Below are positions 11,207 to 22,438 of a DNA stretch of 64,000 bases, piece by piece. Numbering within the stretch: position 1 is the first letter of the stretch; the number at the start of each line of letters is the position of its first letter. The notes beneath the pieces were generated by a model. That model was not told where the DNA came from, did no database searches, and saw only the letters and a list, made by a program, of their open reading frames with translations. The translations under genes and the position numbers were made by a program. The stretch spans positions 1-64,000 of the IMG/VR virus record IMGVR_UViG_2802428989_000001; one strand, given 5' to 3'. The stretch comes from a virus.

Positions 11207-11272
11207 CCGGCTGTGCCGGAACGGGATACGTGCGCCGCGCGTATCAACTACCAGGAATGAAAGGATCAACCA

Positions 11273-11737
11273 ATGAGTGATGACCTATTCGACGGTCCGG
11301 GCTCGGCCGATGTCATCAACTGGGAGGACCTGGAGAAGCGATTGCTACTTGTCCAACCCCTTGAGCTGAAGGTGGGAGTGCCGACCAAGAACTACGGCCC
11401 GAAGGATGCCATTGAGGCCAACGTTCACGTGCTGGACGGCCCGGAGGCTGGCTCGGTGTACCGCAACGGGTACGTCTTCCCGCTGGTGCTGCAAGGTCAG
11501 ATCAAGGGCAACATCGGAACTGGCCGTTTCAACCTTGGTCGTCTCGGCAAGGGTGTGCCCAAGCCGGGCCAGAAGCCGCCCTGGACACTGAGCGAGCCGA
11601 CCGAGGATGAGAAGTCGCTGGCGCGAAAGTATCTCGCTAGCGACAAGTTCCAGCAGAACATGGCCGCGCCTGTCGCTGCGGCATCCGCACCAGCCAACGA
11701 CCCATGGTCGAACAACAGCGCGGAACCGCCGTTCTGA
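11273..11737 (+). CDS. Hypothetical protein.
   Basis: RBS 'GAAAGGA' before the ATG. Coding bias. Confidence 0.55.
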   Translation: MSDDLFDGPGSADVINWEDLEKRLLLVQPLELKVGVPTKNYGPKDAIEANVHVLDGPEAGSVYRNGYVFPLVLQGQIKGNIGTGRFNLGRLGKGVPKPGQKPPWTLSEPTEDEKSLARKYLASDKFQQNMAAPVAAASAPANDPWSNNSAEPPF

Positions 11738-11791
11738 TGAGCGGCCGAGGCTAGAAGCGGATCAACCCCCCGCCCGATCTGCTCGTCTCGG

Positions 11792-11871
11792 CAGGCGCGC
11801 CCCGCGCCCGATCTCGTCCACAGTGTTTGGTTTCAGGTCCCAATCACTGACGGTCGGGGCGGGGCGCGCCA
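11792..11871. repeat. GC-rich imperfect inverted repeat (GGCGCGCCCCGCGCCCGATC ... GGTCGGGGCGGGGCGCGCC) in a 180-bp non-coding gap.
   Basis: Arms at 11792-11811 and 11853-11871, with a direct 'CCCGATCT' repeat. Possible terminator or regulatory site. Confidence 0.4.
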
Positions 11872-11915
11872 CCCAAAACAACTGACACAACAAGCAAACC
11901 GACGCGGAGAACGAG

Positions 11916-12125
11916 ATGAATGCGCCAGCACCCACCTGCAAGTGCGGTCACGACGATGACACGCATGTTGCGGGGTTCGGCCAGTGCCTCGGCTGCACGC
12001 ACTGCCCTGACATTCCGCACAACGCCAAGTCTGGGCACGTCTACAGCCGATGCCTATGCACCGAGTTCAAGCGCGACGATGAGAGCGCCAGCCAGACGGA
12101 GCGACTGATGGGAATGCAGTGGTGA
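11916..12125 (+). CDS. Small Cys/His-rich (zinc-binding) protein.
   Basis: 'CKCGHDDDTH...CLGCTHCPDIPH...CLCTEF'. Confidence 0.5.
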   Translation: MNAPAPTCKCGHDDDTHVAGFGQCLGCTHCPDIPHNAKSGHVYSRCLCTEFKRDDESASQTERLMGMQW

Positions 12126-12349
12126 GCGCCAAGACTATCCGTGCGCGTGAGATCGTCAATGAGGTCCGCAACGACGCCGCGAATGATGTCAAGAACTTCG
12201 ACGGCCGTGAGCTGACTGGGCGACTGGTCGGCGAAATCAATGGCAACACAAACGGTCTCATCGTGGGTCTGGCCAATTGTATTGAGATGTTGGCGACCGA
12301 GATCGAGCGGCTTGAGAATCGGATGCCACCTCAACAGGGGTGGTGGTGA
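12119..12349 (+). CDS. Hypothetical protein.
   Basis: Start overlaps the previous stop. Coding bias. Confidence 0.45.
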   Translation: MVSAKTIRAREIVNEVRNDAANDVKNFDGRELTGRLVGEINGNTNGLIVGLANCIEMLATEIERLENRMPPQQGWW

Positions 12350-20216: not shown

Positions 20217-20356
20217 GCGTGACGTTTGGGGCGCTCCAGCCCGGTCAGTGTGCGCTCTGCGGCAAGGGTTACTCACTGGGTGCGCGAGTGACGTACCGCA
20301 GCCACGACGAAGAGCCAGTGCATGTCATCTGTGCGGAGCTGGCCGATGCCGAGTAG
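20210..20356 (+). CDS. Small Cys-containing protein (48 aa), not in the ORF track.
   Basis: ATG 20210 overlaps the rusA stop. GC-rich third positions. 'CALCGK...VICAE'. Confidence 0.35.
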   Translation: MVGVTFGALQPGQCALCGKGYSLGARVTYRSHDEEPVHVICAELADAE

Positions 20357-20600
20357 AGAATTCGAGGCGGCCTACGAGGGTCACTGTTTCGACTGCGGCG
20401 AGATTATCGCAGTCGGTCAGCACGTCGTCTATGACGATGACGGCGATCTGGTGCATGCCGGGTGTTACAACGACCCAACGTCCTTCGACCCCAGCGGCGA
20501 TGACGAGGTGCGCCCCGTCAAGTTTGTCGAGGTTAAAGAGCGCGCCGACCGAAAACCCTGCGAGTCCTGCCATCTAGTCCATGCCGGTGAGTGTTTCTGA
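20346..20600 (+). CDS. Small Cys-rich protein.
   Basis: 'CFDCGE...HAGCYND...CESCHLVHAGEC'. Confidence 0.45.
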   Translation: MPSREFEAAYEGHCFDCGEIIAVGQHVVYDDDGDLVHAGCYNDPTSFDPSGDDEVRPVKFVEVKERADRKPCESCHLVHAGECF

Positions 20601-20965
20601 TGACCGATCAAGACGTACTGGAGGCCCTGGAGTTCACACCCGATCACGGGCCTTGTGAGTGCGTCAAATGCGGGCTGAACGAAGACCAGCCTGAGCACGA
20701 GGGTAGGTGCGGTAAGCCAGCCAAGTATCGCGCCGAGATGCACATGATCGACAAGTGCAACCAGCCGGGGCTTACCCCAAATGGCGGGACGATCTTCTTC
20801 GTCTGTGAGCGCTGCATGCTGATCGGCGAGCGCGTCGCGGCGCGGATAGCTGCCGCCAATCAACGGCTGATCAAGGAACGCGACTTCGTGATGATGTGCA
20901 CCACATGTCAACGGCCACTCAATGATCCACACAACATCATGGAGGTTGAACCACTCGATGAGTGA
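20600..20965 (+). CDS. Cys-rich zinc-finger-like protein.
   Basis: 'CECVKCG...CGK...CERC...CTTCQ'. Confidence 0.5.
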   Translation: MTDQDVLEALEFTPDHGPCECVKCGLNEDQPEHEGRCGKPAKYRAEMHMIDKCNQPGLTPNGGTIFFVCERCMLIGERVAARIAAANQRLIKERDFVMMCTTCQRPLNDPHNIMEVEPLDE

Positions 20966-21869
20966 GATACGCCGATGCAGGGCTGGCCGACTGTGCGACG
21001 GCTACGAAGTAGTCGCCGGGCAGCGTCGTGCCGCCGAAGTGAACGGCGACGCTCATCTATGCGAGGCGTGCCAGCTCAAGACGCGAAAACTGATCCGCCG
21101 CATGCCCAATGACTGGTGCAAGCTGAAACTGACGATCGGGGAGAAGCGAGCGCGCGGCCAGACCGAGGAAATCAGCCGCAGACCCAAACCCGGATCAAAG
21201 GTACTGATCAACGTGGACACCGCCGAGCTGATGAGCGAGATCGTCGATGTCTGCGATCGCTCTACACGGCTGGCACTAGGCAGGGGTGAGCGCAAGCGCT
21301 CCCGTGGTGACGTGGTGATCGGACAGTCATCGGCCGACAGATACGACTTCCAGGTGGTGCTCAAAGCCGTTGACGTGGTGACAAAGAACATCGACGTGCT
21401 GGCGTCCTCGCAAGAGGGAACCATGTTGGCTCTCAAGGTGTTCGACCTCGGCTATCGCGTCCGCCGACATCTCGGCGAGACACTGTACCGAGAGAAGCAA
21501 CACCTACCCTGCCCCGTGTGCGGCGAGCTAGCGCTAGTCAAGGAGGTGCAGGACAAACGTCAAAGCGTCAGCTCAGCCAACCAAGAGGAGATCACGCCAG
21601 AGGTCATCCGCTGCCTGGCGTGCAACGGTGGGCCCAACCAGGACGGCACATGGACGGAGGCTGAGTATAAGTGGCTCCAGTCGATGGTTCTCACAGATCA
21701 GGAGGAGCACGAGATGCTGAAATGGCTACTTGCGGAGGCGGAATGGCAGCGCGACGTATGCGCCTGGCTGGCCGCCGAACGGCAGTGGTACCTAGAGCTG
21801 GCGTGCGCCACCACCGGCATGCCGTGGGGACACTTCCTGACCGCGCTGGAGGGTACGGCCGACCGATGA
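20958..21869 (+). CDS. Hypothetical protein with Cys-pair zinc-ribbon motifs.
   Basis: 'CEACQ', 'CPVCGE', 'CLACNGG'. ATG 20958 overlaps the previous gene. Confidence 0.5.
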   Translation: MSEIRRCRAGRLCDGYEVVAGQRRAAEVNGDAHLCEACQLKTRKLIRRMPNDWCKLKLTIGEKRARGQTEEISRRPKPGSKVLINVDTAELMSEIVDVCDRSTRLALGRGERKRSRGDVVIGQSSADRYDFQVVLKAVDVVTKNIDVLASSQEGTMLALKVFDLGYRVRRHLGETLYREKQHLPCPVCGELALVKEVQDKRQSVSSANQEEITPEVIRCLACNGGPNQDGTWTEAEYKWLQSMVLTDQEEHEMLKWLLAEAEWQRDVCAWLAAERQWYLELACATTGMPWGHFLTALEGTADR

Positions 21870-22240
21870 GCACCAACGTCCACGTCTACCGAGAATCGCG
21901 CGAGGTTAGGAACAAGCGCATCGCGATCATCGCGATCGACCTACTGACGCGAGTGGTCGCTGGTGACATCGAGGACCCAGCCGCGGCGCTCGCGCGATTC
22001 CATCAGGCACGCGTTGATGAGCACGTGTACTGGACGCAGCCGAGCATGATGCCGTACGACCCTGATCAGTGGTTGACGGCCAATGAGATGGCCGAGATCG
22101 CTGACGTGCTGCCTAGCACGGTTCAGCAATGGAACTACCGCGGTTACATTACAAGTTCCGAGGCGCACGACGGAACCAAGCTGTACAACGTCGGCGAGGT
22201 GAATCGCTACCTCGCACGCAGGCGACCACGCGAAGCCTGA
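21866..22240 (+). CDS. HTH DNA-binding protein (MerR/Xis-like).
   Basis: 'LTANEMAEIADVLPSTVQQWNYRGYI'. Confidence 0.5.
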   Translation: MSTNVHVYRESREVRNKRIAIIAIDLLTRVVAGDIEDPAAALARFHQARVDEHVYWTQPSMMPYDPDQWLTANEMAEIADVLPSTVQQWNYRGYITSSEAHDGTKLYNVGEVNRYLARRRPREA

Positions 22241-22330
22241 TCTATACTGATCAGGCACCTTTCCGCAAAGGTGTCGTTGTTGTGATGGACGAAGGCCCTC
22301 GGACCCCTCCGGGGGCCTTCGTTGCGTTTC
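22236..22330 (+). terminator. Cluster of three hairpins ending in a strong rho-independent terminator.
   Basis: CCTGATC/GATCAGG at 22236-22255. CACCTT/AAGGTG at 22257-22273. A 12-bp GC stem GAAGGCCCTCGG/CCGGGGGCCTTC at 22291-22320, followed by GTTGCGTTTC. Confidence 0.7.
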
Positions 22331-22438
22331 GGGCGCGCCATCAACTACCAGGCAACACAATGTCCACTACACGTCGTATCATGAGCAACTGACAGACCCA
22401 TCCCAAAATCAGGTCCAGGCCTTCCGTCGGAGGCGATT

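Follow-up and report, generated by a model that had tools for sequence, protein, structure and literature searches.

Which signal is carried by the short motif ATCAACTACCAGG, which recurs between genes in a 64,000-nucleotide (nt) stretch of viral DNA (IMG/VR virus record IMGVR_UViG_2802428989_000001, positions 1 to 64,000; hereafter the window)? A preliminary description of the window had reported the motif at three operon starts and proposed a promoter element or activator site. We find a composite, directional DNA site of which the motif forms the strong half; judged by its sequence, the motif belongs to the family of the putative operator lying between the -35 and -10 hexamers of Pcro, the putative early lytic promoter. 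The 12-kb stretch around the motif sites is 100% identical to Mycobacterium phage prophiFSAT01-1 (FSAT01-1; BK061308.1), which belongs to cluster MabR and resides as a prophage in Mycobacteroides abscessus. Clinical strains of Mycobacterium abscessus and M. chelonae carry MabR prophages; for one of these, McProf, a link to raised whiB7 expression and drug resistance has been reported (PMC8191103). Neither motifs nor operators nor promoters are mentioned in the MabR genome paper.

Gene positions were taken from the deposited annotation (window coordinates equal BK061308.1 record coordinates minus 217). The left end starts with the integrase, followed by the leftward gene of the immunity repressor gp3, a 288-bp gap and a rightward block from cro to g44, which closes with terminators; beyond these lie g45 onward (DNA modification, packaging, structure and lysis) and a mixed right arm. 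Non-coding DNA makes up 2,648 of the 64,000 bases. Our comparison covered five MabR phages (FSAT01-1, McProf, prophiFSIL01-1, prophiFVLQ01-1 and the more distant prophiFSQJ01-1) and, as further relatives, the IMG/VR contig L052, L056, L057, L059, L060 and phage DS6A (L044).

Sites of the motif in the window

The three exact copies of ATCAACTACCAGG are indeed present, all on the plus strand (11243-11255, 14794-14806 and 22340-22352), and the longer strings and contexts first quoted for them were correct on checking. When up to two mismatches are allowed, the window holds 9 matches compared with 0.68 expected, a count that none of 100 shuffles reached. The exact copies (sites s1, s2 and s3, Table 1) lie in non-coding DNA, as had been described, in the gaps between g19 and g20, g27 and g28, and g44 and g45. 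Counted from the last base of the 17-mer, the next start codon follows at 13, 36 and 82 nt, respectively, and we could confirm the strong hairpin terminator in front of the 22340 site.

Repeat finding and degenerate scans added s0, s4 and an inverted copy within Pcro, and the family is thus larger than first reported. All five dispersed copies (s0-s4) are oriented with the genes on the plus strand, four of them in gaps and one in the tail of cro. Of seven occurrences of the 8-mer GTAGTTGA in the window, five are at family sites (the Pcro copy, s1, s2, s3 and s4). A further sequence, GTCAATTGGCAGGCTGC, matches the motif consensus at 13 of 17 positions and is found in the same orientation in the gap between the integrase gene and g2 (1450-1609), upstream of g2. 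Within 2899-2941, site s0 overlaps codons for the C-terminal tail of Cro (S-I-T-R-Q-R). Cro tails akin to that of FSAT01-1 are present in L057 (S-T-T-R-Q-Q) and L056 (S-N-V-R-Q-Q), which suggests that this stretch may be under constraint at the protein as well as the DNA level.

Table 1. Motif sites, switch region, candidate binding proteins and associated features in the window
Feature	Position	Strand	Remarks
s0, GTCAATTACCAGACAAC	2899..2915	+	Last cro codons, 25 nt 5' of xis ATG 2941; GACAAC at +11, ACCAAC at +22
s1, ATCAACTACCAGGAATG	11243..11259	+	g19/g20 gap; second unit ATCAAC 11265-11270 (+22), just 5' of g20 ATG 11273
s2, ATCAACTACCAGGCAAC	14794..14810	+	2 nt past g27 stop; GGCAAC at +11, ATCAAT at +22 (14816-14821)
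s3, ATCAACTACCAGGCAAC	22340..22356	+	Downstream of g44 terminators, 82 nt 5' of g45; GTCCAC at +22
s4, GTCAACTACCGGGCTAC	55662..55678	+	g80/g81 gap, before sliding-clamp gene; then TANNNT hexamer TACATT 55676-55681
Inverted relative, ATCAACTACTAGC	2572-2584	-	Repressor-cro gap
Inverted composite copy inside Pcro	2551..2584	-	ATCAACTACTAG 2573-2584; 22 bp on, GTCAACCACTGA 2551-2562
Pcro, putative early lytic promoter	2558..2587	+	Predicted; TTGACA 2558-2563, 18-bp spacer, GATGAT 2582-2587
CTA-S-TAG palindromic operator cores (n = 5)	2391, 2447, 2525, 2573, 2605 (span 2391..2611)		Repressor-cro gap 2366-2653
gp3, immunity repressor	1877..2365	-	Leading candidate binder; putative recognition helix KAQRWNQIT
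Cro	2654..2941	+	Weak HTH_3 match; alternative candidate binder
gp44	21866..22240	+	C-terminal HTH_17; last gene before terminator and s3; candidate direct-repeat binder
Hairpin GATACGTGC-GCC-GCGCGTATC	11225..11245	+	Abuts s1
Two tandem terminator-like hairpins	22254..22323	+	Past g44, immediately 5' of s3
Candidate -10-like hexamer TATCAT	22377-22382	+	TACACT in FSQJ01-1; s3 would be centred near -41
GGTAGA-N4-TCTACC copies	58856-58871, 58882-58897, 58906-58921, 60711-60726, 62776-62791, 62868-62883		

Composite structure and relation to the Pcro operator

With the six FSAT01-1 sites aligned on the motif, a second RTCAAY-like hexamer (one mismatch at most) is found exactly at +22 in five of them, and CAAY stands at +13 in three. 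None of 20,000 shuffles reached the +22 count at any offset, and the second unit is retained in relatives at s0, s1, s3 and the Pcro copy. The layout of a site is RTCAAY-TAC-YRG, then CAAY ∼11 bp on and the second RTCAAY exactly 22 bp on. A distance of 22 bp corresponds to two helical turns, as is usual between neighboring operators that are bound cooperatively. With the phased second unit, the element is directional and spans ∼30 bp, built from direct repeats one and two helical turns apart.

The gap between repressor and cro contains five copies of CTAGTAG, a 7-bp palindrome of the form CTA-S-TAG, and the window has only one other, at 59728. The copy in the Pcro spacer together with its flank, CTAGTAGTTGAT, matches 11 of 12 bases of the reverse-complemented motif CTGGTAGTTGAT. 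Of the two units of the inverted composite copy, ATCAACTACTAG overlaps the spacer and -10 region on the plus strand and GTCAACCACTGA overlaps the -35 hexamer. L056 shares this arrangement (TTGACA as -35, 9 nt, CTA-S-TAG in the form CTACTAG, 2 nt and a -10-like hexamer), and its Pcro operator TTGCCTA-C-TAGGCAA is a 15-bp palindrome (TTGCCTACTAGGCAA). The CTACCA contained in the motif had originally been taken as a half-site of a right-arm operator. aCTACCA does match the right-arm palindrome GGTAGA-N4-TCTACC at 6 of 7 positions, but the Pcro operator is the closer relative.

Conservation and concerted change in related phages

Orthologous sites are kept in all five MabR phages, in the distant Mycobacterium prophage L057 and partly in DS6A. 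The corresponding gaps of McProf, FSIL01-1 and FVLQ01-1 contain the motif with single-base variants (CCAGG, CCGGG, CTGGA, CTAGG). At s2, five phages (including contig L052) have unrelated upstream sequences, their homology setting in precisely with ATCAAC or GTCAAC. At s4, no invariant block of the gap 5' of the Shine-Dalgarno sequence is larger than GTCAACTACCGG when FSQJ01-1 is compared with the other four phages. The prophage L057, which we located in a metagenome-assembled Mycobacterium sp. genome via its repressor homologue, shares 46-61% identity with FSAT01-1 over five proteins. At the s0 position, in the Cro tail ahead of xis, it keeps GTCAACTACCAGGCAAC, and at the s1 position, ahead of the gene for its gp20 homologue, ATCAATTACCAGACAAC; it also has TTACCAG, GTCAACCCTACCGA and GTTGCCTG near its Pcro. 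The DS6A repressor is 47% identical to gp3, and DS6A carries GTCAACTACCAAG directly past the gp71 stop, upstream of gp72 (a 61% homologue of gp20).

Within single genomes, sites have changed in step: s0 and s2 of FSQJ01-1 share ATATCAACCA[C/G]TAGACCTATAAA, and s0 and s1 of L056 share ATCAAATG(T/C)(T/A)AGGCA. The L056 s0 site before xis, ATCAAATGT-TAGGCAAC, carries the exact right arm of the L056 Pcro operator, and the L056 site before gp20 is ATCAAATGCAAGGCAGA, with ATCAAA at +22. In two lineages, the dispersed sites thus appear as a perfect half of the genome's own putative promoter operator joined to a degenerate other half. The concerted change within FSQJ01-1 and L056 suggests that the partner is encoded by the phage and not by the host. 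In L059 and L060, the putative recognition region of the repressor differs, as do the operators (three copies of GGTGTCGC), and no motif precedes xis. Reverse-oriented intergenic copies in DS6A (L044 4304) and FSQJ01-1 (14801) adjoin promoter, operator or palindrome features, which fits a DNA-level better than an RNA-level reading.

A blastn search with the s1 and s3 contexts against 50,697 phage records returned MabR phages only, and matches outside MabR-like contigs in a pattern scan of viral contigs were mostly due to chance. Searching genome contigs with gp20 yielded only a Pseudonocardia prophage, which has no copy of the motif. The gp3 homologue of the cluster K2 phage Milly is gp35, which is not Milly's immunity repressor, and the motif is absent from this phage.

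A possible role as auxiliary operators

The explanation that we tentatively favor is that the dispersed sites represent auxiliary half-operators of the immunity repressor or of Cro, similar to stoperators or secondary operators. A protein of the lysis-lysogeny switch would bind them, most likely gp3, and Cro might use them in lytic growth. Initiation would be blocked by the inverted copy at Pcro. The forward copies, which lie at the start of successive blocks (xis/methylase, the single-strand DNA-binding protein-like gp20, g28-g44 for replication, g45 onward for late functions, and the sliding clamp), would keep the prophage silent by impeding read-through transcription in a stoperator-like manner. 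At s3 and s4, where conserved -10-like hexamers are adjacent, they may occlude secondary promoters.

This assignment as auxiliary operators draws on the resemblance to the Pcro operator in FSAT01-1, repeated independently in L056; on L057, which shares the repressor block GGVVKAQRWNQI and keeps the s0 and s1 sites; and on L059 and L060, where a different putative recognition region goes along with different operators and absence of the motif before xis. The +22 phasing, the stoperator-like orientation, the concerted change, the reverse-oriented copies in DS6A and FSQJ01-1 and the invariance of GTCAACTACCGG in s4 point in the same direction. From the sites, their positions, orientation, phasing and conservation and their resemblance to the operator, we infer a binding protein and an effect on transcription. 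gp3 itself matches phrog_12831 only, with no Pfam match and no PDB sequence match at E <= 10, and its AlphaFold model (predicted local distance difference test score, pLDDT, of 53) is too poor for fold comparison. The block GGVVKAQRWNQI is identical in FSAT01-1, L056 and L057 and falls on a helix-turn-helix (HTH) predicted in this low-confidence model. We found no homology between gp3 and the right-arm HTH protein gp87.

Several observations weigh against auxiliary operators. The dispersed sites best conserve RTCAAY and CAAC, whereas the five switch operators best conserve CTA-S-TAG, a perfect copy of which is almost never present in the dispersed sites. L056 has the putative recognition helix of FSAT01-1, yet a different central triplet. 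There are only 5-6 sites per genome, compared with 14 to >20 stoperators in MabJ and cluster A phages, and gp3, with its low-confidence model, is unrelated to the L5-type repressor. Conservation of s0 could be partly coding, as the site overlaps the Cro tail codons S-I-T-R-Q. Finally, the G-poor, CA-rich context and the hairpins 5' of s1 and s3 would fit a role at the RNA level equally well.

A possible element acting in the mRNA

An RNA-level role would make the motif part of an unstructured, CA-rich leader module that uncouples and boosts expression of the downstream cistron, be it as a ribosome standby site or enhancer, as an endonuclease processing point by a protective hairpin or as the target of an RNA-binding protein. 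We consider this unlikely. The five copies are sense-oriented and predicted to be unpaired, with G-poor, A/C-rich leaders and a Shine-Dalgarno sequence downstream of them. The hairpin abutting s1 is kept by covariation: FSQJ01-1 shows a compensatory change (CATACG...CGTATG), and L056 and L057 have equivalent hairpins that differ in sequence. The 5' arm of this hairpin, unit 1 and unit 2 (near the Shine-Dalgarno sequence) change together, which suggests alternative pairing, and between-phage variation consists mostly of transitions.

However, the leaders fold no more stably than shuffled sequence, no Rfam family matches at gathering threshold anywhere in the window, and start codons follow at variable distances (13 to 82 nt). 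The strict 11/22-nt phasing and the inverted promoter copies (Pcro, DS6A and FSQJ01-1 14801) fit DNA better, and lineage-specific concerted change is unexpected for a ribosome or host RNase signal. Should the s4 -10 hexamer be real, the s4 motif would lie upstream of its own transcript. Mycobacterial RNase E prefers RN|CNU, which the motif does not fit.

A stem enclosing s0 in FSAT01-1 is lost in McProf, and a putative s3 leader peptide (mini-open reading frame ATGTCCACTACACGTCGTATCATGAGCAACTGA) is not conserved in FSQJ01-1. CAAUUACCA in s0 may resemble a tobacco mosaic virus omega-like enhancer. Open reading frames of 117 bp have been annotated across the s3 motif and leader as FSIL01-1 gene 44 (L003 22110-22226) and FVLQ01-1 gene 47 (L004 22900-23016); both are doubtful, since the annotations of FSAT01-1 and McProf leave the same DNA non-coding. 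All five MabR phages conserve the leader of glycosyltransferase gene g45 (22383-22438), and within its hairpin GCCTTCCGTCGGAGGC (22419-22434) the GGAGG ribosome-binding site is paired, suggesting translational control. A second family of G-poor, CA-rich leaders (ATCACAACAACGA...) is found at 5300-5331, 9168-9199 and 14820-14851, upstream of g8, g16 and g28, and is probably the other motif of the preliminary description. The C-terminal end of gp20 (gene region 11273-11915), DPWSNNSAEPPF, resembles the tails of single-strand DNA-binding proteins. Its gene is preceded by a hairpin and the motif and followed by a very stable structure (11738-11915, z = -4.95), as though it formed a self-contained, highly expressed unit.

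A winged-helix protein as possible binding partner

A serious alternative, to which we assign a low probability, is that a small winged-helix protein of the HTH_17 type (Xis/BldC/MerR-like: gp44, gp13 or the Xis protein gp5) binds the repeats head-to-tail and represses or activates the downstream block. The direct repeats at 0, +11 and +22 would suit such a protein, and gp5, gp13 and gp44 have weak HTH_17 matches. gp44 is the last gene product encoded before the terminator and s3, a position typical of late-gene regulators. Its C terminus aligns with Streptomyces BldC over 53 residues (6AMA, E = 0.036), and its putative recognition helix differs between FSAT01-1 (PSTVQQWNYRG) and FSQJ01-1 (PGTVQKWNHRG), a difference that parallels the altered sites of FSQJ01-1.

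On direct repeats, BldC forms head-to-tail oligomers, and its binding is directional (PMC5859096); Gp36 of phage D29, a MerR/Xis-like winged-helix protein, binds direct repeats ∼20 bp apart and lowers downstream expression (PMC12266134). The MabR sites share with these systems the direct repeats one or two helical turns apart, and the MabR phage encodes putative HTH_17-type proteins. The sites of Gp36 and BldC are directionally bound, lie at a gene end or in a gap and lower downstream phage expression; the MabR sites have comparable positions and would act in a comparable way. The Gp36 repeats, AGGCGGC-N13-AGGCGGC, differ in sequence from the MabR motif. The MabR protein assignments are weak, as every Pfam match falls below the gathering cut-off, and a winged-helix binder leaves the resemblance to the Pcro operator in two lineages unexplained; this resemblance has no counterpart in D29 Gp36 or BldC.

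The promoter question

The original proposal of a promoter element or activator site survives in part. A cis-regulatory role is well supported by intergenic position, by conservation in relatives and by homology blocks starting exactly at the motif, but a promoter element is unsupported as a general explanation. It would require the sites to start a transcript at the block heads through phage-directed or non-canonical recognition by host RNA polymerase, which appears improbable to us. Functional blocks are headed by the sites, hairpins or terminators precede s1 and s3, and both g20 and g81 have the motif upstream and a strong hairpin downstream. Yet a consensus scan predicted no sigma-70-type promoter at any of s0-s4, and no phage RNA polymerase or sigma factor is found among the annotated genes of prophiFSAT01-1. 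The consensus scan together with a manual search for -35/-10 pairs in both orientations gave no consistent geometry; TTGAY in the reverse complement of the motif resembles a -35, with no -10 downstream.

The mycobacterial -10 consensus is TANNNT. The sites have neither a common -10 nor a common spacing to any -10-like hexamer, as would be found at sigma-A promoters, and TACCAG in the motif lacks the final T of TANNNT. At s1, the Shine-Dalgarno sequence begins no more than 5 nt downstream of the 13-mer, and with a -41 geometry transcription would start inside g20. Nothing is conserved upstream of the motif at s2, and no TANNNT is conserved downstream of s0, s1 and s2. The geometry rules out a sigma-A promoter at s0-s2. 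A TANNNT hexamer is retained in all five phages, with changes at its variable positions, only at s3 and s4, at different offsets: it directly follows the motif at s4 (TACATT/TACTGT/TAGATT), and at s3 the motif would lie at about -41. The TATCAT hexamer at s3 is a candidate -10 of a late or middle promoter, and s3 and s4 may possibly be operators or activator sites at such secondary promoters. The observation itself is real and stronger than reported, and its interpretation as a promoter is partly supported.

That the repeats are mere linker or boundary sequences of gene-module recombination is very unlikely: at s2, five phages have five unrelated upstream sequences with homology from the motif on, and the FSAT01-1-specific g25-g27 end 2 nt before it, but only s2 is explained in this way, as s1, s3 and s4 lie within fully collinear regions, the motif is kept in the strongly diverged L057, the phased second unit and the operator relationship remain unaccounted for, and retention of direct repeats, which invite deletions, suggests selection.

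Comparison with known dispersed sites

The stoperators of cluster A phages and of MabJ are dispersed along the direction of transcription, with the promoter operator inverted (PMC9934374; PMC9283540). Like those of cluster A phages such as L5 and TipsytheTRex, the MabR sites are short, directional and placed in short gaps between genes of a temperate mycobacteriophage. Dispersed sites in both cases have one orientation and are related in sequence to an inverted operator at the early lytic promoter, an arrangement that we find for s0-s4 and the Pcro copy. In contrast, stoperators number 14 to >20 copies of an asymmetric 13-14 bp consensus, compared with five dispersed sites and one Pcro copy here; the MabR sites are composite, with the +22 repeat, and the MabR switch operators are CTA-S-TAG palindromes. 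gp3 has no similarity to any solved structure and does not resemble the L5 gp71-type repressor, a monomer with an HTH and a Stoperator domain. Repressor binding and an orientation-dependent block of elongation characterize stoperators; for MabR both are proposed.

The SAS and ESAS elements of cluster K phages are likewise asymmetric 13-bp repeats that occur in one orientation 5' of non-structural genes and are cluster-specific; their function is still unknown (PMC3203893). They are present in at least 11 copies of a GGGATAGGAGCCC-like 13-bp sequence with a Shine-Dalgarno core, 3-7 bp from the start codon. The MabR motif has another sequence without AGGAG and lies 13-82 nt from start codons, and the cluster K2 phage Milly carries SAS. 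In Streptomyces phage phiC31, repressor-binding inverted repeats are found at many intergenic positions of the early region, by multiple promoters and terminators. These sites differ from the MabR element in being inverted repeats and in the repressor family involved.

The MabR element is a regulatory repeat that is specific to its cluster and had gone undescribed. Its logic comes nearest to that of stoperators, from which it differs in the repressor family, the low copy number and the composite, phased structure. A wider proposal, which we regard as doubtful, is that stoperator-like silencing arose independently in a second, unrelated repressor family (MabR/DS6A-type gp3), using a few composite half-operators of two phased units 22 bp apart that head lytic blocks and co-evolve with each phage's operator. 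If true, temperate mycobacteriophages would have arrived repeatedly at dispersed operators that block elongation, which would then not be peculiar to cluster A. Silencing of MabR prophages has not been described previously. Our analysis maps as candidate control sites five CTA-S-TAG switch operators, five dispersed composite sites and a separate family of right-arm palindromes, which may provide handles for engineering lytic derivatives, predicting immunity groups and seeking dispersed repressor sites outside cluster A. The finding is of specialist interest and opens no new category.

Right-arm palindromes

The 16-bp right-arm palindromes GGTAGA-N4-TCTACC form a family separate from the motif and occupy gaps by genes reported to be expressed in lysogeny. 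The third of them (58906-58921) contains TGG-TAGAAT, an extended -10-like sequence just 5' of the g86 ATG. The FSQJ01-1 half-site reads AGTAGA/TCTACT. Two additional palindromes of this type are found in McProf beside the reverse gene gp56, and in DS6A TGTAGAGTGGTCTACA lies over the -10 of a promoter before gp48.

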